Counted from the stretch's first letter, positions 3,286 through 13,243 are shown. The stretch is DNA of 64,000 nt from Vulcanimicrobiota bacterium (GCA_963812155.1 CAWETW010000003.1:1238544-1302543); one strand, 5' to 3'. Numbers and translations are program-made. Notes: generated by a model not told the origin, from the letters alone.

Positions 3286-4534
3286 ACTCGTTGCGGTCGG
3301 GACCGAACTGCTGTTGGGTCAGTTGACCGATACGAACACGCCGCATATCGAACGGCGGCTCGCGGAGATCGGCGTCGACGTTCGGGGAACGCATGCGGTC
3401 GGCGATAATCGCGAACGCATCGCGGAGACGATCCGCAGCGTGCTCGATCGCCGCGACGGTGCGATCGTCACCGGCGGACTCGGGCCGACCGTCGACGACC
3501 TCACGAAGGAGGCCGTGTGCGACGCGCTCGGTACCGGGACGGAACTCTACGAGCCGGCGCTGCGGCAGATGGAGGCGTTCTTTGCGCAGATCGGTCGCGA
3601 GATGCGGCCGAACAACCGCAAACAGGCCGAACTCCCGCGCGGGAGCTTGCCGTTGGAGAATCCCTTCGGCACCGCTCCGGGCTTTGTCGCGTTTTCCGCC
3701 GGAGGGGGATTCGTGGCGTGCATGCCGGGCGTTCCTCACGAGATGAAACCGATGCTCGCGAACGCGCTGGTGCCGTTCTTGGTGCAACGCTTCGGGCTGC
3801 GCGACGGCATCTACACGCGCGTGCTGCACACGATCGGCATCGGGGAGTCGGAGATCGACCATCGCATTGACGACCTGTTTCGCGCGTCTGAAAATCCGAA
3901 GCTCGCGGTGCTCGCGCACGGCTCGCGCGCCGACGTCAAGATCATGGCGAAGAGTGCGAGCGCCGCGCAAGCGCGAGCAATGATCGCGCCGCTGGAGACC
4001 GAAATCGAGCGCCGGTTGGAAGGATACGTTTACGGCGCCGACGAGGCGACGATCGAGTCGGCCGTGCTTGCGTTGTTGCGCGAGCGCGCGTGGACGGCCG
4101 CGACGGCGGAGTCGTGTACCGGGGGGCGCATCGCAGCGGCGCTCACGCGGGTGGCGGGAGCGTCGCAGAGTTTTGCCGGAGGAATCGTCGCTTACGACGA
4201 CGCGGTCAAGATATCGTCGCTCGGCGTCGACGCACCGTTAATCGCGCACGACGGCGCGGTGAGCGAAAACGTGGCGCTGGCAATGGCACGCGGAGCGCGC
4301 GCGCGGCTGAAGGCCGACGTCGCGCTGTCCACGACCGGCATCGCCGGGCCGAGCGGCGGATCGGCAGAAAAACCGGTCGGGCTCGTCTACGTTGCCATCG
4401 ACGACGCAAACGGAAACTCGCGCGCGTGGCACGTGCAGCTGCGTGGAGACCGCGAGACGATCCAGTCACGCGCGACTACCTACGCGCTCGGATTGCTCTG
4501 GCGCCGGCTTCGCAGCGTTACCGAAGCGTTATGA
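3272..4534 (+). CDS. cinA: CinA family protein (MoCF-like domain plus NMN deamidase PncC)
   Basis: VGTELLLG, TGGLGPTVDDLT, PGVP, ATAESCTGG, STTGIAGP motifs. Confidence 0.93.
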   Translation: MASVELVAVGTELLLGQLTDTNTPHIERRLAEIGVDVRGTHAVGDNRERIAETIRSVLDRRDGAIVTGGLGPTVDDLTKEAVCDALGTGTELYEPALRQMEAFFAQIGREMRPNNRKQAELPRGSLPLENPFGTAPGFVAFSAGGGFVACMPGVPHEMKPMLANALVPFLVQRFGLRDGIYTRVLHTIGIGESEIDHRIDDLFRASENPKLAVLAHGSRADVKIMAKSASAAQARAMIAPLETEIERRLEGYVYGADEATIESAVLALLRERAWTAATAESCTGGRIAAALTRVAGASQSFAGGIVAYDDAVKISSLGVDAPLIAHDGAVSENVALAMARGARARLKADVALSTTGIAGPSGGSAEKPVGLVYVAIDDANGNSRAWHVQLRGDRETIQSRATTYALGLLWRRLRSVTEAL

Positions 4535-5071
4535 GAACTCCAAGCGACGAGGAAGCAGCGCCGCTGCTTCCGCAACGGCTGGGTGGCGAACGGAAAGCGT
4601 TTCCGGCGTTCCTTTAAGCTGTAGACCCTTCTTGTTCCATAAACCGATGCTTTGCCATCGCGACTCATAGCGTGACCACCAGGCGATGCCGATCCATCGG
4701 CGCGTTTGGTAGATTCGTTCCGACCACGTTTGCGAGATGCTGCGATCCCGCGTTACGACCGCCGAGGGAGCCAGGTCGTAGGTCAGAAGCGCAGCGGCGC
4801 AGTCGAGATCGCAAATCGAACTTCGATCCGAGAAGGTAAATGCTGCCAGAGCGTATGGCCGGTCGCGACCTGCAAAAAGCGCCGGCCGCCAGGTGTCGAG
4901 CCGGCCGAAAGCCTCGCTTATGGCTCCCGCGGCGGTCGTGCTGAGATAAAGCTCGTGATAGATGTCCGGGTTTCCGATGCGACCGAGACCGGATCGCGGT
5001 GCGAACATAGGGCCGCCCGGTTCGGACGTCCGCGCGCTGGAGTCATACGGAAATACTCGGTAAAGCGTCAT
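4529..5071 (-). CDS. RES-domain toxin (MbcT/ParT-like)
   Basis: R (MTLYRV), E (AISEAFG) and S (GIAWWSRY) residues in RES spacing; overlaps the upstream antitoxin by ATGA. Confidence 0.8.
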   Translation of the reverse strand: MTLYRVFPYDSSARTSEPGGPMFAPRSGLGRIGNPDIYHELYLSTTAAGAISEAFGRLDTWRPALFAGRDRPYALAAFTFSDRSSICDLDCAAALLTYDLAPSAVVTRDRSISQTWSERIYQTRRWIGIAWWSRYESRWQSIGLWNKKGLQLKGTPETLSVRHPAVAEAAALLPRRLEFS

Positions 5072-5454
5072 GCATAAGCACCCGCTTCGATCGCGTCAAG
5101 GGCCTCGATCAACGGCGCCGAGCCGCGTTGCGCGAGGACGTCGATCGGTCGCGCCTGGTTGAGAAACGGCTCGTGTCCGACAAGCCAATCCGTTACGACT
5201 TCGGCCGGAAAGACGAGCAGAGCCCGCGCCAGGACGCCGTGCAGATCGAGAATGCGGCGCGTCATCTTCGCGCTGATCTTCCCGCCGCGCTTCCACCGCG
5301 TGACCATCGCAGCATCAACGTCGAGTAGGCGCGCGACGGGATTGTGACCGTATGCTGCGATCATTTGCAGCAAAAGCGGATGAAGGTCCGTGAGTGCCTG
5401 CGGATTATTTGGCGCAACAAAGGGATCGATCGTAGGACTCCAGCGCGCATCCAT
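5068..5454 (-). CDS. Xre/MbcA/ParS-family antitoxin
   Basis: N-terminal HTH (VARLLDVDAAMVTRWKRG) plus C-terminal WLVGHEPFLNQARPIDVL...IEAGAYA toxin-binding motif. Confidence 0.85.
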   Translation of the reverse strand: MDARWSPTIDPFVAPNNPQALTDLHPLLLQMIAAYGHNPVARLLDVDAAMVTRWKRGGKISAKMTRRILDLHGVLARALLVFPAEVVTDWLVGHEPFLNQARPIDVLAQRGSAPLIEALDAIEAGAYA

Positions 5455-5506: not shown

Positions 5507-6553
5507 CTAAGTCTTCGGAAGCGTCGGGGTAGCGTAGCCGATCGCTTCCAGCACGCGTTGCGTTGCGAGCGCCTCTTCAAACGTAGGAAGCGCGTTAGGC
5601 CGTCCTTCGATGGCGTCAACGAATTCGTCGTACAACTCCATCAGGAGCGGCACGTTTCCGTTGATCGAGCCGAAGCGCGCGTACGGCGAGGGCTTGCATT
5701 CCAGTTCGCTCGTCTCTTCCGGGTCGATCGAGAAGAGGGTCAACTCCACGATATTGGGTCCGCTGGCGACGGCAGTACGGTCTTCGCCGTGCACTGCACA
5801 TGTGTACCCTTCCGCTGACGTTGTACCGTCGACGGTCAACCGGCCGACGAACCCGTCGCCGTATTCGAGCAACGCGAATGCGCCGTCGTCCACCGTGGAA
5901 ACGAACTCGCCGGCGTCGTCGCGGCGCCGGTGGTTGGCGGCGCGCGTGAATCCGACTGCGCGTTGCGGGGCACGGCCGGCGAGCCAATCGGCGTGATCGA
6001 CGATGTGCGACATCATCGCGCCGGCCAAGCCGCCTCCGCGCTCGCGCTCGAACCACCAACCCCGGCGGCGCGTCTCGTGGCGGTGAAGCATGCGCCGCAA
6101 AAGGCTAATCTCGATGTTCCGGAGCGGATCGAGATGATGGTTGTCGACGAGTTCCTTGAGCGCGCGCGCCTGCGGGGTGAATCGAAACTCGTGCACGATC
6201 CCGCAGGCCGTTCCCGCGTGGGCCGCGGCCTCGACCATGCGCTCCGCCGACTCGACGTTGAGGGCGAAGGGTTTTTCGCAGAGGACGTGTTTTTCGCGTT
6301 CGAGCGATGCGAGGACGTCGTGCACGTGCGAGAACGGCGGCGATGCCACCAGGACGGCGTCGAGCTCGCAGCCGGCGAGCATTTCGTCGCACGAACGAAA
6401 TGCGTGCGGAATCGTCCCCTCGGCGGCGTGCCGCGCGGCGCTCGACGGCGATGCCAGCGCGACGACGTCGAAGCGCGGATGGGCCCGCAGCGCCGGCAGA
6501 TGCGAACTGACGCCGAACCCTGCGCCGACGATACCCACGCGAATCGGATCCAT
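5507..6553 (-). CDS. Gfo/Idh/MocA family NAD(P)-dependent oxidoreductase
   Basis: VGIVGAGFG Rossmann motif, HVLCEKP, GGGLAGAMMSHIVD. Confidence 0.92.
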   Translation of the reverse strand: MDPIRVGIVGAGFGVSSHLPALRAHPRFDVVALASPSSAARHAAEGTIPHAFRSCDEMLAGCELDAVLVASPPFSHVHDVLASLEREKHVLCEKPFALNVESAERMVEAAAHAGTACGIVHEFRFTPQARALKELVDNHHLDPLRNIEISLLRRMLHRHETRRRGWWFERERGGGLAGAMMSHIVDHADWLAGRAPQRAVGFTRAANHRRRDDAGEFVSTVDDGAFALLEYGDGFVGRLTVDGTTSAEGYTCAVHGEDRTAVASGPNIVELTLFSIDPEETSELECKPSPYARFGSINGNVPLLMELYDEFVDAIEGRPNALPTFEEALATQRVLEAIGYATPTLPKT

Positions 6554-6562
6554 CGTCCGCTC

Positions 6563-7861
6563 CTACTCGGCCGCGCCGGCCGCGGCCTCCAGGAGATCCA
6601 GTCCGCGCGACAGCTGCGTTTGCGTGATGACGAGCGGAGGCGAGATCGAAATGGCGTCCCCGCGCGTGCCCGATTGCAACAGAATGAGACCGCGCTGCAA
6701 CGCGCCTCTGACCACGCCTTGCGCGGTTGCAGCGTCGCGAAACTGCACGGCCCATAGGAGCCCGCGCCCGCGCACTTCGCGGACGAGGCGCCGCGAACGA
6801 ACGTCTTCCAGGCGCGTGCGAAGGTACGGCTCGAAGGCGGCGGCTCGCGCGACGAGATCGAGCCGCTCGATCTCCTCGATGGTCGCGAGCGCGGCTGCGC
6901 AGCCCATCGGGTTGCCGAGATACGTCGACGTATGCAGGGCTTCGCCGCGCGATACGGGCCACGCATCCATGATCGTTGCGCGCGCTATCGTCGCGCTGAT
7001 CGGGAAGCCGGATCCCATGGCTTTTCCGATGCAGAGAATATCCGGCATTACCGCCTCGCGCTGCACGGCAAACCACGTGCCGGTCCGGCCGAAGCCGGTG
7101 AAGATTTCGTCGGCGATCAGCAGCGCGCCGATCTCGTCGCACAGCGCGCGCAGCGCGCGCAGGTATCCGTCGGGGGGGACGACGGCGCCGCCGCGCCCTT
7201 GAATCGGCTCGACGATGACGGCGGCGACGTCCCCAGCCGCGTGCAGCGAGGCGCGCGTATCCGCGATCGCCTCGCCGGCCGTGATGCCGCTTGCCGCATC
7301 CGGATAGTTTAACGGCACTGCCTCGGGGCCGAGCGCCCGAGCGAACGGACCCCGGAACGTCTCGATTCCGCACAGCGGCAGCGTGCCGAGCGAAAGTCCG
7401 TGATACGCGCCGCGATACGCGGCAAAGCGCGCGCGGCCCGTCGCGAGCATCGCGGTCTTGAGGGCCGCTTCGACGGCTTCGGACCCCGTGGTAGCGAGAA
7501 ATATTTTCCACGCAGCGCCGGGAAGCAACGCCGCAAGCCGTTCGAGCAGGCGCGCGCGCATTGCGGTTGGATGCACGTCGCCCATGCCGTGCGTCAGGCG
7601 TGCGGCTTGTTCGGCGATGGCCGCGGCAACGCGGCGATTCGCATGCCCCGCGTTGGCGACGCCAAACGCCGCGGTAAAATCGAGATACCGGTTTCCATCC
7701 ACGTCGGTGACCGTCGCGCCCTCGGCGCAGTCCCAGAAAACCGGAAAGTCGTCGAAGAACGCGGTAACGTTCTGCGATTCGAATTGCCGCAGCAGGGCTC
7801 GATAGCGGTGCGATGCCGGACCGGGAACGGCGCCCGTCATGCAATCGAGATCGTCGCTCAC
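6563..7861 (-). CDS. Class-III PLP aminotransferase (GabT/ArgD-like)
   Basis: DVDGNRYLDF, TGSEAVEAALK, IVEPIQGRGG, DEIFTGFGRTG, PLP lysine in ILCIGKAMG; GTG start overlaps the luxC-like stop (GTGA). Confidence 0.92.
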   Translation of the reverse strand: MSDDLDCMTGAVPGPASHRYRALLRQFESQNVTAFFDDFPVFWDCAEGATVTDVDGNRYLDFTAAFGVANAGHANRRVAAAIAEQAARLTHGMGDVHPTAMRARLLERLAALLPGAAWKIFLATTGSEAVEAALKTAMLATGRARFAAYRGAYHGLSLGTLPLCGIETFRGPFARALGPEAVPLNYPDAASGITAGEAIADTRASLHAAGDVAAVIVEPIQGRGGAVVPPDGYLRALRALCDEIGALLIADEIFTGFGRTGTWFAVQREAVMPDILCIGKAMGSGFPISATIARATIMDAWPVSRGEALHTSTYLGNPMGCAAALATIEEIERLDLVARAAAFEPYLRTRLEDVRSRRLVREVRGRGLLWAVQFRDAATAQGVVRGALQRGLILLQSGTRGDAISISPPLVITQTQLSRGLDLLEAAAGAAE

Positions 7862-9093
7862 GTTTCGTCGCCGATCCAACGCACGAACTCGGCGATGCGC
7901 GGCCGCCCCCCGTGATATCCACGCAGCGGCGGCGATTGCAGCGCGCCGAACGCGGCGATGCGCAACGCACCCAACGCGCGTGCGGTCGCCGCGGCGCCAT
8001 CCTGGAGACCGGCGGCGGCGAGCGCTTCGATCGGAATGCGATGCCGCGCGACGTAGTGCGCAGCATCGGCGGGTGCGTCCACGCTGAAAACCGCGAGTGC
8101 CCGTGGCAGAAACGGCGGCGAATCGTCGCGCGGCTGGTCGAGCACGATGAGATGCGCCGCGTCCGGTCGGGAAAAGACCGCTCCGCACGCACCGCTTGCG
8201 CGGAACGCCGCGGCATCGCGCGCGGCGGCTACCGGCGCCAAGCGCCCTGCATCGAATGCGCCCGGCGGAAACTCCACGCTCGCGTGCTCGGTTGCATGTG
8301 CGAGCATCCTGCAGAACTCTTCCGGCGACACGCCGCCGCCTCGTTCGACGAAGAGCACGCGCAGCGAAAGGCAGCCTTCGGTGTCGTAGAGCACGAGGTC
8401 GCGCGCGGCGCCTTCGGCGATGCGCGCGGCGTTCGCGGCAGTGTCGAGTGCGTCGCGTCCGACGTAGCCGCAGCTCGCCTTCGAACCGTAGCCGATCCAG
8501 CGCGCCGCAGCAGCCAGATCCGCGCGAATACGCTGCAGCGTTGCGTCGTCGCCGAACGCTACGACCGCGGCGAACTCGTCGAGACGGCGGCGGTCGCGTT
8601 CTCCGTCCCACGTCAACGTCGCGGCCGCCGTTGCAAACTCCTCGAGTTCCTCGGTCAGCGTTTTGAAGAATGCTGCAACCAGCGCGTCGTCGCGGTCCTT
8701 GACGAGCACGTCGCATTTCGCGCACAGTGCGAAGATCGCCGGGACGATGGCGACGCCGACTGTCGTGCGGCTCGACAGGATGCAGACGCGCCCGACCGGC
8801 AGCGCGCGCGAACGCAGTCGTCCGGGCGCGTCGACGAAACCGTCGAGCGCCTCGAGCGATCCCAATTCGTTTCGAATGACGTCTTCGATTGCATCGCGCG
8901 TCACTGCGGAAAAGAGACGATCGAGGGCATACTCGACGACGGGCGTGGAATAGCCGGTGCGCTCGCACGCTGCGGCGATGACGCGAACGCGCGGCGGGAA
9001 GTCGGCGTCGATCCAGCGTTCGGCGGCGTCGCCGATGGCGCGGACGATCGAACGAACCGGGCGCTCGATGAGTGAGCCTGCGAAGAAATCCAT
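7858..9093 (-). CDS. LuxC-like acyl-CoA/acyl-protein reductase
   Basis: ALDH-like fold with VVAFGDDATL, GYGSKAS and catalytic Cys region LYDTEGCLS; start could be 9108. Confidence 0.8.
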   Translation of the reverse strand: MDFFAGSLIERPVRSIVRAIGDAAERWIDADFPPRVRVIAAACERTGYSTPVVEYALDRLFSAVTRDAIEDVIRNELGSLEALDGFVDAPGRLRSRALPVGRVCILSSRTTVGVAIVPAIFALCAKCDVLVKDRDDALVAAFFKTLTEELEEFATAAATLTWDGERDRRRLDEFAAVVAFGDDATLQRIRADLAAAARWIGYGSKASCGYVGRDALDTAANAARIAEGAARDLVLYDTEGCLSLRVLFVERGGGVSPEEFCRMLAHATEHASVEFPPGAFDAGRLAPVAAARDAAAFRASGACGAVFSRPDAAHLIVLDQPRDDSPPFLPRALAVFSVDAPADAAHYVARHRIPIEALAAAGLQDGAAATARALGALRIAAFGALQSPPLRGYHGGRPRIAEFVRWIGDET

Positions 9094-9169
9094 GTAGCGG
9101 TCGTGCATCTTCGAGCGGGAAGCGCGAAACTCCCGAGGTCCTCGAGCCGCGAGCGGCTAAAGGCGCGGC

Positions 9170-10393
9170 ATGCCCTGGTTGCCTCGCGCATTTTTTCTGC
9201 TCGTCGCGACGGTCGCGATCGCCGGCGCCGGCTGCACGAGATACGGCAAGCCGACGCCGGTGCCACCGACGATTCCACCCCTCACGGTGCTTATCGTTAA
9301 TCCCGTCAGCGGGAGCGACACGACCGGTAACGGCACGAGCGAGAAGCCATACAAGACGCTGACGAAAGCGCTCGCCGTCGTGAAAAACTCGACGACGCCG
9401 GGACTGACGATTCAACTCGCCGCGGGACAGTACTCGGCGGCGAGCGGGGAAACGTTCCCGATCGTCGTTCCGACGGGCGTCACCATCGACGGCAGCGGTT
9501 ACACGGGGCAGACCGGCTTCCCGAAAGGGACGTTCATCAACGGCATCGGCGAGGATACGGCTCTCGAGAAGCTCGCCGGCTTTGCCCCGCAATCCGCCTA
9601 CACGACGCTCGAGATCGGCGCCGGCGTAACGTCGGTTTCGCTCAACAATATCTACGCGGGCGTCACGCGGTTTGGAACGCTCAACCCGAGGGCCGCCTAT
9701 AGCACGCTCGACGCGCTCGGTTCGTTAAGCATTGGGCATGCGTCGCTCGGGGCCGGGACGTTGTTCAGGGGCCATCCTAATGGAACCGGAATCGCCGTGC
9801 CGAGCGGCGATCTTACGTGCATCGGCTGCGCGATTGCGGGTGGCGCTGCGGCGCTAGTCGCGTACACGCTGCCTAACGGCGCATCGCCGCCGCTCATCGT
9901 CTTGAGCGGGCAGCCGACGCAGGGCATCATCGGCGGCGCTATCGGCATCCTGAGCGATGGATACGCCGGTATCACCGCGTCGTATCAAACGTTTCAGTCG
10001 AAACAGTACGCTTTTTCGGACAAGTTTGCGCCGCTCGTTCCTTCGAGTGGATCGTTCGCTTTGAGCACGCCGGATTTCGGCAACGCGCCGAATACCGCTT
10101 CGCCCGGCGGCAACTCGTTCATCGGCGTTGGAACCTCGGGCCTCCTCGTCACGTTGCCGCTCGATCAAGTCTACGCCGAAGGCGATTACTGGACGCCCAA
10201 CCAGCAAGGCGCCAACGTGCACGGCCAGTATCCTAGGAAGCGCCTTTTTAGCGCCGGAGCGAGCGGCAAGAACGTCACCATCGCGGGCAACGCCTCGGGT
10301 GCGGCGGTCCTGGTCGGCCCCATTCCACCGCCGACGCCGACGCCTCCGCCGTCCGGGGAGCCGAGCACGAGCCCTTCGGCGAGCCCGACGTAG
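9170..10393 (+). CDS. DUF1565-like beta-helix lipoprotein
   Basis: Lipobox AGAGC; VNPVSGSDTTGNGTSEKPYKTLTKAL...QLAAGQYSAASGETFPI signature; Pro/Thr/Ser-rich tail. Confidence 0.75.
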   Translation: MPWLPRAFFLLVATVAIAGAGCTRYGKPTPVPPTIPPLTVLIVNPVSGSDTTGNGTSEKPYKTLTKALAVVKNSTTPGLTIQLAAGQYSAASGETFPIVVPTGVTIDGSGYTGQTGFPKGTFINGIGEDTALEKLAGFAPQSAYTTLEIGAGVTSVSLNNIYAGVTRFGTLNPRAAYSTLDALGSLSIGHASLGAGTLFRGHPNGTGIAVPSGDLTCIGCAIAGGAAALVAYTLPNGASPPLIVLSGQPTQGIIGGAIGILSDGYAGITASYQTFQSKQYAFSDKFAPLVPSSGSFALSTPDFGNAPNTASPGGNSFIGVGTSGLLVTLPLDQVYAEGDYWTPNQQGANVHGQYPRKRLFSAGASGKNVTIAGNASGAAVLVGPIPPPTPTPPPSGEPSTSPSASPT

Positions 10394-10398
10394 ACGCG

Positions 10399-11514
10399 CT
10401 AGGCGACTGGGTGCAGGGTTTCGGCGTCGAGCGAGCAGCCGCGTAACGCCGCCCCGCTCTCGCGCCCGATCAGCACGACCGCATCGCCGAAACGCGCGCC
10501 GAGATCTTCGGTAGCGACGGCGACGCACGACGCGCGGTTCGCAAGATCCACGTGCACGAGCGCGCCGACCGTACCCTCGGGCAGCGTCGTACCGTCGGGA
10601 CCGACGACTCGCGCTCGAAGCCACGGCGGTGCATACTTCTTGCGCGCATCGGCCACGGCGTGTTCCCCGCGCGCCAAGAGGCCGTCGTAATACTGCGAGC
10701 TCAGTTCGGTCATTCCGTATTCGGCGACGATCGCGTCGAGCGGAACGGCGAACGCACGGCGGGCGCGCGCGTAGAGGCCGGAGCGTTCGACGATACGCGC
10801 GCGGCCTTTGAAGCCCCCCGTTTCCATGATGCGCGACCCCGGTGAAAGCTCGAAATGTAAAGAACGTTCCTCGAGTGCGTCGAGAGCGCCGGCGAGCGCA
10901 AACGCGGTCGTCGCGATGCACACCGGCGCATCATCCGACGCAGCGCGGCGCAAGGCCTCAAAAAATTCGCCGAGCGCGAGGGCGTCGCCGCGGACGTACC
11001 AGCCAGTTTGGCCGTCGCCGCGCCGTTCGCAGACCCGGCCCATCATGTAAGCGAGTGACGAACGGGGACGCTCCGACGGAGCCGGAACGAGGTTGAGATA
11101 GCGCAGCGGCTTGCCGTCGGGCAGCATGAAGCGGTCGAATCCGGCAAGGAGCGCGGCATCGTAGAGATCCGGTGTTTCGAAGTAATGGCGCCCTGGTCTG
11201 CCGCCGGTCGTGCCGCTGGTTTCGAAGACCAGCGCGGCGCGCGCCGGATCGAACGTCGCGAGGACGGCGTCTTTGAAGGCCGCCGCCGGCGCCGGCGGAA
11301 TCTCGTCCGGCGATTGCGGCGGCAGCGACGTCGAAATGCCGCGGGCCGCGCAGTAGCGCGCATAGGGTGCGTTGTAACGCATTTGATAGTCGAACACGTC
11401 GAGTGCGAGCGCGTCGAATCCGGCGTCGTCGAGCGCGTCGCCCGTGCGGTGCCAGCGATCGATTGCAGCGAAAATGCGGGCGTCGAGCGCGTCGGATTCG
11501 TCGCGATAGGTCAC
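10399..11514 (-). CDS. LuxE-like acyl-protein synthetase
   Basis: FETSGTTG adenylation loop, METGGFKG, EYGMTELSSQ, VDLAN, TEDLG, C-terminal LRGCS acylation Cys. Confidence 0.85.
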   Translation of the reverse strand: MTYRDESDALDARIFAAIDRWHRTGDALDDAGFDALALDVFDYQMRYNAPYARYCAARGISTSLPPQSPDEIPPAPAAAFKDAVLATFDPARAALVFETSGTTGGRPGRHYFETPDLYDAALLAGFDRFMLPDGKPLRYLNLVPAPSERPRSSLAYMMGRVCERRGDGQTGWYVRGDALALGEFFEALRRAASDDAPVCIATTAFALAGALDALEERSLHFELSPGSRIMETGGFKGRARIVERSGLYARARRAFAVPLDAIVAEYGMTELSSQYYDGLLARGEHAVADARKKYAPPWLRARVVGPDGTTLPEGTVGALVHVDLANRASCVAVATEDLGARFGDAVVLIGRESGAALRGCSLDAETLHPVA

Positions 11515-11990
11515 GGGGTGCGGCGGCGCGACGTGATGACGCCGCTGTTGAGGCCGCTGGTCGCGAGGCCGCCGTCGAAGCGGGCGTGCTCGACCTTCAC
11601 GCAGCGGTCCACGACCACCGTCAAGCCCGCGGCATCGGCCTTCGCAATGGCGTCCTCGTTGACGACGCCGTACTGAAACCAGATCGCTCGCGCGCCGGCG
11701 GCAATCGCGTCCTCGACGACCGCGACGGCGTCGGACGGCTTGCGAAAGACGTCGACGAGATCCGGCGCGCCGCGATCGGCGGCGTAGGCGGCGAGCGACG
11801 GATACGCGCGCACGCCGTCGATCGCGTCGACCGACGGATTGATCGGGGTCGCGTCGTACGGCGTCTGCGTGCGCAGATACGAAAAGACCGTGTAACTGGG
11901 CCGCAGTGCGTTGGGCGACGCACCGACGACGGCAATGGTTCGCACGGTGCGCAGTAACGCTTGCCGCTGCGACGGCGTGCGCGCGATCAC
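11511..11990 (-). CDS. CoA-binding protein (YccU family)
   Basis: IAVVGASPNALRPS, DLVDVFRKP, WFQYGV, VVDRCVKVEH; GTG start overlaps the metY stop. Confidence 0.9.
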   Translation of the reverse strand: MIARTPSQRQALLRTVRTIAVVGASPNALRPSYTVFSYLRTQTPYDATPINPSVDAIDGVRAYPSLAAYAADRGAPDLVDVFRKPSDAVAVVEDAIAAGARAIWFQYGVVNEDAIAKADAAGLTVVVDRCVKVEHARFDGGLATSGLNSGVITSRRRTP

Positions 11991-13243
11991 GCCGGAGCGG
12001 TCGCCGGAATCGCCGCAGCCGAGAGAGCGCGGTCGACGTCCCAGATCAGATCCTCCACGTTTTCGAGACCGACCGAAAGCCGCACGAGTTCGGGTGGGAC
12101 GCCGGCTTTTTCGAGCTCGCCGTCGGAAAGCTGCGAGTGCGTCGTCGACGCAGGATGGATGACCAGGCTTTTGGCATCGCCGACGTTGGCGAGATGACTC
12201 CACAGTTCGAGCGCGTCGATGAAGCGGCGTCCGGCATCGCGGCCGCCGCGCAGACCGAACGTGAAGATCGAGCCCATGCGCGGCTCGCGCACCCACGCGA
12301 CCTCGTCGCGCGTTTTCAAATGGGCGGAAATCGCGCGCGCGTTGGCGACGTGCTTCTCCATGCGAAGTGGGAGCGTCTCGAGACCGAGCAGCATGAGCCA
12401 GGCATCCATCGGCGCCATCTGCGCGCCGACGTCGCGCAGCACCTCGGCGCGCGCCCGCATGAGAAAGGCGTACTCGCCGAACGTCTCGCTAAACATCTTG
12501 CCGTGGTAACCCGGACTCGGCTCGGTGAGCAGCGGATAACGCCCGTTGTGCCAGGGAAACGTTCCCGATTCGATCAGCACGCCGCCGATGGTCGTCCCGT
12601 GACCGCTGATGAACTTGGTTGCGGAATGGAGCACGAGGTCGGCGCCGTGTTCGATCGGCCGAAATAGATACGGCGACGCAAACGTGTTGTCGACGGCCAG
12701 CGCCACGCCGGCTTCGTGCGCGACGCGAGCGAGGCCGGCAACGTCGGCGATTTCGCCGGAGGGATTAGCAACCGTCTCGACCAGCACCATACGTGTATTT
12801 GGCCGAATCGCCGCGCGCACCGCGTCGAGGTCGCTCGCCGGCACGAACGCCGTCTCGATGCCCATGCGTTTGACGGTGACGGCGAGTTGGGTCGTCGTGC
12901 CGCCGTAGACGTGCTGCGAACAGACGAGATGGTCGCCGTTCTGGGCGAGCGAGAGCACCGCGCACAGTTGTGCCGCTAACCCGCTGGAGAAAGCGATTGC
13001 GCCCAAGCCTCCTTCGAGGCTGGCCATCCGTTCCTCGAACGCCGCAACCGTCGGATTGCTGATGCGGCTGTAAATGTGGCCGTAGCCGCGCAGAGCAAAG
13101 AGTTCCGCCGCCTGCTCGGTCGAGCCGAAAACGTACGCCGCGGTTTGATAGATCGGCGCGACGCGCGCGCCGGTCGCGGGATCCGGCGGTGCGCCCGCGT
13201 GAATCGCGCGGGTCGAGAAGCCGAATTGCCGATCCTGCTGCAT
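11987..13243 (-). CDS. metY: O-acetylhomoserine aminocarboxypropyltransferase (sulfhydrylase)
   Basis: PIYQT, IYSRISNPT, DNTFASP, HSATKFISGHG, LANVGDAKSLVIHPASTTH. Confidence 0.92.
   Translation of the reverse strand: MQQDRQFGFSTRAIHAGAPPDPATGARVAPIYQTAAYVFGSTEQAAELFALRGYGHIYSRISNPTVAAFEERMASLEGGLGAIAFSSGLAAQLCAVLSLAQNGDHLVCSQHVYGGTTTQLAVTVKRMGIETAFVPASDLDAVRAAIRPNTRMVLVETVANPSGEIADVAGLARVAHEAGVALAVDNTFASPYLFRPIEHGADLVLHSATKFISGHGTTIGGVLIESGTFPWHNGRYPLLTEPSPGYHGKMFSETFGEYAFLMRARAEVLRDVGAQMAPMDAWLMLLGLETLPLRMEKHVANARAISAHLKTRDEVAWVREPRMGSIFTFGLRGGRDAGRRFIDALELWSHLANVGDAKSLVIHPASTTHSQLSDGELEKAGVPPELVRLSVGLENVEDLIWDVDRALSAAAIPATAPA

Follow-up and report, generated by a model that had tools for sequence, protein, structure and literature searches.

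A probable replacement for QueC and QueF in queuosine biosynthesis by a LuxE-like enzyme, a LuxC-like enzyme and a class-III aminotransferase

Introduction

The window analysed here, a 64,000-nt stretch of DNA from a Vulcanimicrobiota bacterium, encodes a LuxE-like adenylating enzyme, a LuxC-like thioester reductase and a class-III aminotransferase. Which acid do these enzymes convert, and into what? An earlier note on this DNA remarked that luxAB and luxD are missing, and this was borne out: none was found among the annotated neighbours, and a search of 5 genomes, this one included, gave LuxD (PF02273) in 0. The same note predicted a carrier-free conversion of an acid through an aldehyde to a primary amine, and named a fatty amine, lysine or ornithine as possible products.

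From gene content and protein sequence we consider it likely that the three enzymes stand in for QueC and QueF in the making of queuosine. According to the available parts of PMC11130926 and PMC6593275, de novo synthesis of preQ1 requires both proteins, and whether a genome counts as a queuosine maker or as a scavenger is decided by their presence. No description of the trio as a route to preQ1 was found in the literature.

Results

Organization of the locus

Domain profiles placed all six minus-strand genes where the earlier note had put them. These are metY for O-acetylhomoserine sulfhydrylase (11987..13243; TIGR01326 547.6 bits, over the cut-off), a gene for a CoA-binding protein (11511..11990; CoA_binding_2, PF13380), the LuxE-like gene (10399..11514, 371 aa; PF04443 30.6 bits, cut-off 24.9), the LuxC-like gene (7858..9108, 416 aa; PF05893 130 bits), the aminotransferase gene (6563..7861, 432 aa; PF00202, Aminotran_3, 343 bits) and a gene for a Gfo/Idh/MocA oxidoreductase (5507..6553; GFO_IDH_MocA). 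The sequence also bears out the GTGA overlaps of stop and start codons (11987-11990, 11511-11514 and 7858-7861). The genes do not, however, form one continuous run. A plus-strand gene for a DUF1565 protein (9170..10393, 407 aa; PF07602, E 1.5e-16) separates luxE from luxC, and the stretch therefore consists of two minus-strand blocks. The start of the DUF1565 protein resembles a signal peptide. The same insertion occurs in 7 of 37 relatives' loci, while luxE abuts luxC in most of the remaining loci; the DUF1565 protein is outside the pathway. A promoter and terminator scan gave results at chance level (2 found versus 1.1 expected, and 6 versus 8.6).

The linkage of the aminotransferase to luxC and luxE holds well beyond this genome. 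The aminotransferase gene follows luxC in all 37 relatives' loci, luxC adjoins luxE in 25 of 32 luxE loci, and the trio recurs in a different gene order in Myxococcota and Elusimicrobiota. A LuxC-like homologue was present in 71/71 genomes of the same family, genome-wide LuxC counts having been made within this genome's phylum. In one genome, G077, LuxC and the aminotransferase are cleanly fused. This fusion and the conserved linkage back the predicted carrier-free acid-to-aldehyde-to-amine logic, and the core of the locus is luxE, luxC and the aminotransferase gene. A second apparent fusion, in G125, was rejected as read-through of a one-base frameshift, the normal LuxC end lying in the next frame.

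The other minus-strand genes are less constant. The Gfo/Idh/MocA gene follows the aminotransferase gene in 32/37 relatives' loci, 0/3 loci of sister family f3 and 3/80 metagenome loci picked by LuxE; it accompanies the trio only within this order of bacteria and is probably a passenger. The CoA-binding gene (30/37 relatives' loci, missing from families f2 and f3) and metY (26/37, one copy a fragment) are passengers. All three were rejected as pathway members: family f3 has lost them, as have the loci outside the phylum.

Features of the three core proteins

The LuxE-like protein carries a C-terminal acyl-carrying cysteine, Cys360 (LRGCS; bases 10435-10437), and the adenylation pair Lys236/Arg351. 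K236, R351, G359 and C360 are invariant in a 122-row homologue alignment, so that the acylation cysteine is intact, as had been read earlier. The protein matches 7xc6_E (phmmer E 1.2e-7) and scores 37.2 bits against a cut-off of 550 for the NCBIfam LuxE equivalog. Its predicted structure (pLDDT 94) has PaaK-type aryl-acid ligases as top Foldseek matches. This match tells little about the substrate, since Photobacterium LuxE is itself described as PaaK-like in the available text of PMC9157457. No relative of the LuxE clade was found in viral contigs.

The LuxC-like protein likewise retains its catalytic cysteine, Cys246 (EGCLS; bases 8371-8373), which is invariant in a 16-row alignment. It scores 29.4 bits against the NCBIfam LuxC equivalog cut-off of 750. 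Its model superimposes on 7xc6_A with Z 37.9 (399 residues, rmsd 2.3), covering residues 49-459 of that chain. Because the alignment stops at residue 459 of Photobacterium LuxC, the element 460-488, which builds the long fatty-acyl cleft according to the part of PMC9157457 consulted, is missing. The short C-terminus is conserved among homologues.

The aminotransferase has the PLP lysine (Lys280) and the DE-x-x-TG motif, together with the motifs YHGL and EP-x-x-G-R-G-G and a clade-specific W-x4-GEA-x-HT. Arg223 occupies the position of the usual gateway Glu, Leu156 that of the substrate Arg and Ser405 that of the C-terminal Arg. The enzyme is thus without the arginine of the FHGRT motif, by which ArgD/GabT-type enzymes bind an amino-acid substrate, and likewise without the gateway Glu and the C-terminal Arg of ArgD/LysJ/GabT. 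The fold, PLP lysine and DE-x-x-TG motif are common to class-III omega-aminotransferases (PatA 4UOX, GabT, ArgD). The enzyme falls below the cut-off of all 25 NCBIfam families shown and matches putrescine aminotransferase PatA with E about 5e-70. By its sequence it is a distinct clade. An enzyme from G183 was removed from the aminotransferase panel, as it is without the clade signature.

Queuosine genes in this and other genomes

This genome contains folE2, an adjacent queD-queE pair, tgt, queA and queG. The QueE-like protein is under every NCBIfam cut-off, its best score being 119.7 of 240 bits. For QueC there were partial matches at NadE level only, for QueF there was no match, and no YhhQ-type salvage transporter was found in this genome. 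The folE gene (PF01227) is absent in 4/4 genomes of this class, which is accounted for by the presence of folE2. Tgt has the equivalents of Cys158 and Val233, residues that mark preQ1-using enzymes in the available portion of PMC3660597, and preQ1-type pocket residues were found in 21/21 sequences matched by motif search among 31 examined. Both queA and queG are kept in 5/5 genomes tested. A stop flagged in the tgt match of G077 is the normal stop. Scans of 20 sources for a nearby preQ1 riboswitch found none.

In this class 28 genomes were compared, with unpublished G128 omitted: the LuxE clade, QueE-like protein, QueD and Tgt were each present in 28, and QueC and QueF in none. Thirty-eight genomes of other phyla, picked solely by the aminotransferase signature, gave LuxE clade 37, QueE-like 35, QueD 37, Tgt 38, QueC 2 and QueF 0. 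When both sets were pooled (66 genomes), QueC was found in 2 and QueF in 0, a tally in which, as in all those given here, related genomes are not independent and most genomes are incomplete MAGs (this genome is 84% complete). Among 13 control genomes the corresponding numbers were 0 for clade LuxE, 8 for QueC and 3 for QueF; these include G183, which is without LuxE, QueE, QueC and QueF.

Random samples gave the same picture. In the Myxococcota group, to whose phylum G189 belongs (its record is Myxococcales), 74/90 genomes were LuxE-positive. None of the 64 LuxE-positives tested had QueC and 1 had a weak QueF match, whereas the 16 LuxE-negatives had QueC in 15 and QueF in 11. In Acidobacteriota QueC was missing in only 3/79 genomes, all 3 with an in-clade LuxE, and it was present in 72/72 published genomes without one.

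Some genomes count against this pattern. QueC-family matches accompany LuxE of the clade in four genomes: G166 (89 bits), G168 (183 bits, beside radical SAM and glycosyltransferase genes), and G289 and G307 (138-141 bits, where the usual copy scores 198-260). Besides the trio, G262 shows a weak QueF match (64 bits) next to thiC, and a QueE-like gene was not found in 3 of the 38 genomes picked by the aminotransferase.

Gene order in other genomes

No que gene is adjacent to the trio in the window, and the que link thus rests on other genomes. The queE gene stands immediately before the aminotransferase gene in 10/44 signature loci versus 0/36 others, and the order luxE-(MFS)-luxC-queD was found in 8/32 luxE loci. 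These linkages come from a single Verrucomicrobiota lineage, the same 8-10 genomes, and so count as few events. Two metagenome loci have the order queG-aminotransferase-luxE-luxC, with an aminotransferase of a different kind. In a quick protein tree, a sister branch nested in the LuxE clade (SH-aLRT 99) sits with thiD, thiG, thiH, thiE, NMT1/THI5 transporters and an SDR, which suggests that the substrates are small heteroaromatic acids. Because thiamine contexts have members of this LuxE/LuxC clade paired with an SDR, LuxE alone is no marker of a preQ1 route.

Discussion

7-Carboxy-7-deazaguanine (CDG) differs from preQ1 by exactly the acid-to-aminomethyl change that these folds perform. In the route that we propose, FolE2, QueD and QueE, whose genes are present and whose activities are assigned from their families, would make CDG. 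The LuxE-like enzyme would adenylate its carboxylate with ATP and hold the thioester on Cys360, and its flexible tail, by a mechanism borrowed from the LuxC-LuxE complex, would hand the acyl group to Cys246 of the LuxC-like enzyme. The latter, which has the required residues, would use NAD(P)H to reduce the thioester to 7-formyl-7-deazaguanine, a known compound that is released by QueF mutants in the available text of PMC13740343. The aminotransferase would convert this aldehyde to 7-aminomethyl-7-deazaguanine (preQ1), and Tgt, QueA and QueG, also encoded, would complete queuosine on tRNA. The products of metY, the CoA-binding gene, the Gfo/Idh/MocA gene and the DUF1565 gene would be dispensable.

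Compared with QueC and QueF as described in the accessible parts of PMC13740343 and PMC11130926, the proposed route would start from the same substrate (CDG), end at the same product (preQ1), draw likewise on ATP and NADPH and occupy the same place between QueE and Tgt. In contrast, the trio proteins are unrelated to QueC and QueF, the intermediate would be an aldehyde rather than an amide and a nitrile, and the nitrogen would come from a PLP amino donor, not ammonia. With no preQ0 nitrile as intermediate, the route could not supply archaeosine or preQ0-type DNA modification.

If the trio does replace QueC and QueF, entire lineages of soil and water that at present count as incomplete would be queuosine makers, and the maps of suppliers of queuine, a micronutrient that animals get from bacteria, would change. 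It would also give a large LuxE/LuxC clade its first non-luminescent function, assign an orphan aminotransferase clade and provide a carrier-free acid-to-amine cascade for heteroaromatic substrates. We favour, somewhat less firmly, the broader view that de novo preQ1 synthesis without a nitrile, by relatives of the bioluminescence fatty-acid reductase, is what much of Myxococcota, Vulcanimicrobiia and Gemmatimonadota, and some of Verrucomicrobiota, normally use, and that carrier-free reduction of small heteroaromatic acids, for queuosine and in a thiamine-salvage offshoot, is the widespread LuxE/LuxC job, of which light production is a specialised case.

The trio could act elsewhere in the 7-deazaguanine pathway: its substrate could be CPH4 or a CDG that tRNA already carries, or it could yield an aminomethyl product not meant for tRNA queuosine. 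All the genomic evidence for conversion of CDG to preQ1 fits such roles equally, and in Verrucomicrobiota it is queD, not queE, that adjoins luxC, the QueD product CPH4 also being a carboxylic acid. We nevertheless regard them as unlikely, because Tgt retains its preQ1-type pocket in the motif-matched sequences, the retained QueA and QueG both need preQ1-tRNA, and the direct product of QueE is free CDG.

If the trio salvaged another small heteroaromatic acid, for instance by turning an oxidised thiamine pyrimidine into the aminomethyl compound, the mirror-image distribution of queC/queF would be lineage history. The nested branch with its thi genes, NMT1/THI5 transporters and SDR lends this idea some weight. 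That branch, however, has an SDR or a transporter instead of the aminotransferase, no thi gene lies beside any annotated aminotransferase-bearing locus, and the retention of queD, queE, tgt, queA and queG without queC/queF in four phyla would go unexplained; we find such a salvage role very improbable.

A carrier-free conversion of alpha-aminoadipate to lysine or of glutamate to ornithine fares no better. In its favour, neither this genome (84% complete) nor its congener G143 (93%) yielded lysA, argC or proA. But among the five genomes tested for these markers, G011 and G045 carry the trio just as well although they have lysA and argC, and so does G041 with its lysA; trio-bearing relatives thus carry lysA (3/5) and argC over the cut-off (2/5). 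No arg or lys gene lies beside the trio in annotated loci, and the aminotransferase is without the FHGRT arginine that presumably binds such substrates. An amino acid product is therefore hardly credible. Glutamate-1-semialdehyde synthesis bypassing HemA was rejected, as hemA is over the cut-off in 5/5 genomes.

A fatty amine, made by reducing and aminating a fatty acid with a long chain as for the tambjamine tail, has two known systems in its favour. LuxE and LuxC of luminous bacteria use myristate, as stated in the available text of PMC9157457, and the tambjamine enzymes TamA/TamH (PMC9594044) and TabE/TabA, with TabQ (bioRxiv 2025.08.11.669332), combine acid activation, thioester reduction and omega-transamination, as the trio would, to produce dodecylamine. 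These enzymes, however, work with an acyl carrier protein, on a C12 fatty acid, within a natural-product cluster, whereas the trio would be carrier-free and its context is tRNA modification. No PP-binding gene was found among the conserved neighbours of the trio, ACPs occurring only beside distant out-group LuxE, and LuxD and tailoring genes are not among the neighbours either. The missing 460-488 element, with the conserved short C-terminus, speaks against a long acyl chain, the single-copy core distribution (71/71) is unlike that of a secondary-metabolite cluster, and the queC/queF pattern would be left without account. The fatty amine named earlier is thus not supported, and we give it very little credence.

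With the LuxC-LuxE complex of Photobacterium phosphoreum (7XC6; the portion of PMC9157457 available), the proteins studied here share both folds, the Lys/Arg pair and both cysteines, and the luminous system is free of CoA and ACP, as proposed for the trio. The differences are an identity of 16-18%, the lack of luxAB/luxD and of the 460-488 element, the coupling to an aminotransferase and the occurrence as core genes in soil phyla. Adjacency or fusion of luxE and luxC is a further trait in common, with 7 LuxE-LuxC fusions among the 13 long matches scanned. TabE clusters with LuxC in its authors' network (bioRxiv 2025.08.11.669332), and TamH is a reductase-transaminase fusion, like the LuxC-aminotransferase of G077.

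A three-enzyme module in the window and its relatives

The luxE-like (10399-11514), luxC-like (7858-9108) and class-III aminotransferase (6563-7861) genes on the minus strand of the window form a real, widespread three-enzyme module. We predict that this trio most likely stands in for QueC and QueF in queuosine biosynthesis, an undescribed variant of the known pathway. The six minus-strand genes at 5507-13243, the three GTGA overlaps and the two cysteines described in the earlier note were confirmed in both sequence and annotation. One gene had been overlooked there: a DUF1565 gene on the plus strand (9170-10393, 407 aa) between luxE and luxC. This opposite-strand gene splits the window into two blocks, metY-CoA-binding-luxE and luxC-aminotransferase-Gfo. 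Its start lies only 61 bases from that of luxC, and no promoter consensus was found in this gap. An Xre-like antitoxin gene (NF049845, 31.9 bits, under the cut-off) and then a RES-like gene without a library match occupy 4529-5454 on the minus strand, by a sigma-70-like site at 5490-5461; this mobile toxin-antitoxin pair recurs in two of the 37 relatives' loci but sits elsewhere in them.

The names given to close homologs (Candidatus Tumulicola, Baltobacteraceae) put the window's genome in Vulcanimicrobiota. Of 151 genomes searched in this phylum, 111 carry a luxC homolog, including all 71 from the same family. We compared 37 same-class loci, about one per genus and a subset of all matches. 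The aminotransferase follows luxC in every one, with luxE upstream in 36 and Gfo downstream in 32; the CoA-binding gene (30/37), metY (26/37) and DUF1565 (7/37) are less constant. Synteny within the family spans the entire neighbourhood, and co-conservation there is consequently weak on its own. In the sister family f3, luxE-luxC-aminotransferase alone is retained (all 3 f3 loci among the 37, plus five further loci). In genome G077 (1.9 Mb), LuxC and the aminotransferase are cleanly fused through a Pro/Ala/Thr linker into one 892-aa protein (L043:6555-9233), a natural fusion that would serve well in assays. In other classes of the phylum, LuxC is of a distinct, longer kind joined to an AMP-binding domain, and the aminotransferase is missing. 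Three loci of this kind (L068-L070, from G072, G058 and G035) combine a distinct luxE with a GNAT-like gene and a LuxC/AMP-binding fusion of 885 aa; in G035 queE lies divergently beside the fusion locus, and the genome nonetheless has QueC.

Linkage of the aminotransferase clade to luxE, luxC and queuosine genes

By sequence comparison, the aminotransferase of the trio forms its own clade. The FHG-K/R residue, gateway Glu and C-terminal Arg have customary roles in class-III aminotransferases; relative to putrescine aminotransferase, these positions hold Leu156, Arg223 and Ser405, respectively. Arg223 may bind the carboxylate of the amino donor. GTDB contigs were scanned for the enzyme, and among the best 80 of 593 confirmed matches 44 had the Arg signature and 36 did not. 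Flanking luxE or luxC genes were found in 10 of these 44 signature loci versus 0 of the 36 others, so the linkage in other genomes, whose absence the earlier note named as a refutation of its reading, is present. The gene order in Myxococcota and Elusimicrobiota is aminotransferase-luxE-luxC.

In 10/44 signature loci from the same best 80 of 593, a QueE-like radical SAM gene lies directly upstream of the aminotransferase; the encoded enzymes score 256-259 bits on TIGR04349 (cut-off 300). Among 32 luxE loci from these genomes, luxC adjoins in 25 and the order luxE-(MFS)-luxC-queD occurs in 8; the links to queE and queD both come from a single Verrucomicrobiota-like lineage (one tree branch) and thus represent few independent events. 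Of 80 metagenome loci chosen by LuxE match, 59 contained luxC, 25 a class-III aminotransferase, 1 queD and 0 queC. Sixteen of the 25 aminotransferases had the signature, six were of the ordinary Glu type and three were partial. The order queG-aminotransferase-luxE-luxC was seen in both of the Glu-type loci, out of six, whose neighbours were annotated. Within the window no que gene adjoins the trio.

Queuosine genes and the distribution of QueC and QueF

The window's genome contains folE2, queA, queG, adjacent queD and QueE-like genes, and a tgt with equivalents of Cys158 and Val233, which mark preQ1-using Tgt enzymes (PMC3660597). In this 84% complete genome, QueC gave partial matches at the NadE level only, and neither QueF nor a YhhQ-type transporter was found. 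The sole missing queuosine step is that from CDG (7-carboxy-7-deazaguanine) to preQ1. A search for a preQ1 riboswitch in 20 sources found none. Two queA-family genes are present in the window's genome (C1:170791 and C1:469543), as also in G041, and two full-length members of the tgt family occur in several genomes of Verrucomicrobiota and Myxococcota.

The LuxE clade, QueC, QueF, QueE, QueD and Tgt were sought in a panel of 80 genomes. All 28 genomes of the same class (unpublished G128 excluded) had the LuxE clade, QueE, QueD and Tgt, and none had QueC or QueF. In 38 genomes of other phyla chosen by the aminotransferase signature, the LuxE clade was present in 37, QueC in 2, QueF in 0, QueD in 37 and Tgt in 38; QueE was present in 35, no QueE-like gene being found in the other 3. 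The lone genome without LuxE (G161) also lacks queD, which lies beside luxE in the operon of its lineage, a double absence that suggests a gap in the assembly. Thirteen controls (7 genomes from other classes and 6 with ordinary aminotransferases) had clade LuxE in 0, QueC in 8 and QueF in 3.

In order to avoid selection by the feature itself, genomes were also drawn at random in two phyla. In the phylum of G189, a Myxococcales record, 74/90 were LuxE-positive. The test covered every LuxE-negative genome (16) and the first 64 of the 73 new positives; QueC was found in 15/16 negatives versus 0/64 positives, and QueF in 11/16 versus one weak match in 64. In-clade LuxE occurred in 5 of 79 random Acidobacteriota: no more than three of the 79 lack QueC, all of them among these five, and the other two of the five have a weak QueC-family match. 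QueC was present in 72/72 published Acidobacteriota without in-clade LuxE (unpublished G306 and G331 excluded). As kin are not independent, we attach no p-value weight to these tables. Counter-cases are four genomes (G166, G168, G289, G307) in which QueC-family matches accompany the LuxE clade, and G262, where a weak QueF match does; by context these look like putative paralogs. The absence of a preQ1 riboswitch, of a que gene beside the trio in the window and of QueE-like genes in 3 of the 38 genomes likewise counts against the queuosine reading.

Two small Acidobacteriota genomes without QueC (G291 and G352; loci L343 and L344) have a short, fast-evolving in-clade luxE (305 aa) and a 327-aa luxC-like gene, both barely detected by Pfam. 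QueC without a QueF match was seen in G010, G017, G035, G062 and G072; in G062 and G072 queC, queE and folE2 lie together with DndB-like genes, an arrangement resembling a 7-deazaguanine DNA-modification cluster. Two surveys hold QueC and QueF to be required for de novo queuosine synthesis and count gut Akkermansia as makers (PMC6593275, PMC11130926); the present reading does not extend to those bacteria. Entries in our data that bear the names Akkermansia or Bifidobacterium match Pedosphaera-like ones in gene order, and their labels may be wrong.

Predicted conversion of CDG to preQ1

We consider it probable that the trio converts CDG to preQ1 through 7-formyl-7-deazaguanine. CDG would be the substrate and preQ1 the product; the putative intermediate, 7-formyl-7-deazaguanine, is a known product of QueF mutants (PMC13740343). 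By analogy, the LuxE-like and LuxC-like enzymes would carry out the adenylation, acyl-Cys transfer and NADPH reduction described for the LuxC-LuxE complex (PMC12041015, PMC9157457).

The LuxC model (pLDDT 88.7) best matches Photobacterium LuxC (Z 37.9, rmsd 2.3, 399 residues). In contrast to that enzyme, it stops at the equivalent of residue 459; residues 460-488 of Photobacterium LuxC build a long hydrophobic cleft (PMC9157457). The short C-terminal end is conserved among homologs. The LuxE model (pLDDT 94) is closest to PaaK-type aryl-acid ligases, weak evidence since Photobacterium LuxE is equally closest to them. The polar residues Ser152, Ser153, Ser273 and Gln274 of LuxE show at least 90% conservation across the clade, compared with Val, Trp, Thr and Cys in the fatty-acid enzyme.

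The lysine/ornithine-type substrate proposed earlier fits on its face: lysA, argC and proA were not found in the window's genome (84% complete) or in a congener, G143 (93% complete). However, lysA and argC are present in other trio-bearing genomes. Either auxotrophy for lysine, arginine and proline or the use of alternative routes may account for the undetected genes in this genus. An acid-to-amine cascade via a thioester is known from tambjamine synthesis; as described in bioRxiv 2025.08.11.669332 and PMC9594044, it differs in using a carrier protein and fatty acids. The literature searched, which covered few subscription papers, contained no account of preQ1 being made through LuxE/LuxC or an aldehyde.

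A thiamine-context branch of the LuxE clade

Nested within the LuxE clade of the trio is a branch (SH-aLRT 99; quick tree, 53 rows) that occurs in thiamine contexts, with an SDR and thiamine-type transporters in place of the aminotransferase. It lies once inside a thiamine operon, thiD-thiG-thiH-luxE-luxC-ABC(NMT1/THI5)-SDR-thiE (L403:3074-12430). Other arrangements are cytX-like-luxE-luxC-ABC(NMT1) (L429:1488-7775, no SDR seen before the contig end), nucleobase permease-luxE-luxC-SDR on gut contigs (L410:4528-9381 and L424:4444-9345) and luxE-luxC-SDR on a Pantoea plasmid (L361:6779-10187, NZ_CP040096.1); locus L428 was assigned to the branch without a view of its gene context. We infer salvage of an oxidised thiamine moiety from acid through aldehyde to alcohol, possibly an undescribed salvage of a pyrimidine or thiazole acid. 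The branch supports small heteroaromatic acids as substrates of the LuxE clade. Given this second use, LuxE alone is no marker of the preQ1 route. In P0174, P0187 and P0223 a LuxE-clade domain is fused to a zinc alcohol dehydrogenase domain, which may reflect a third role, from acid to alcohol, or read-through by chance.
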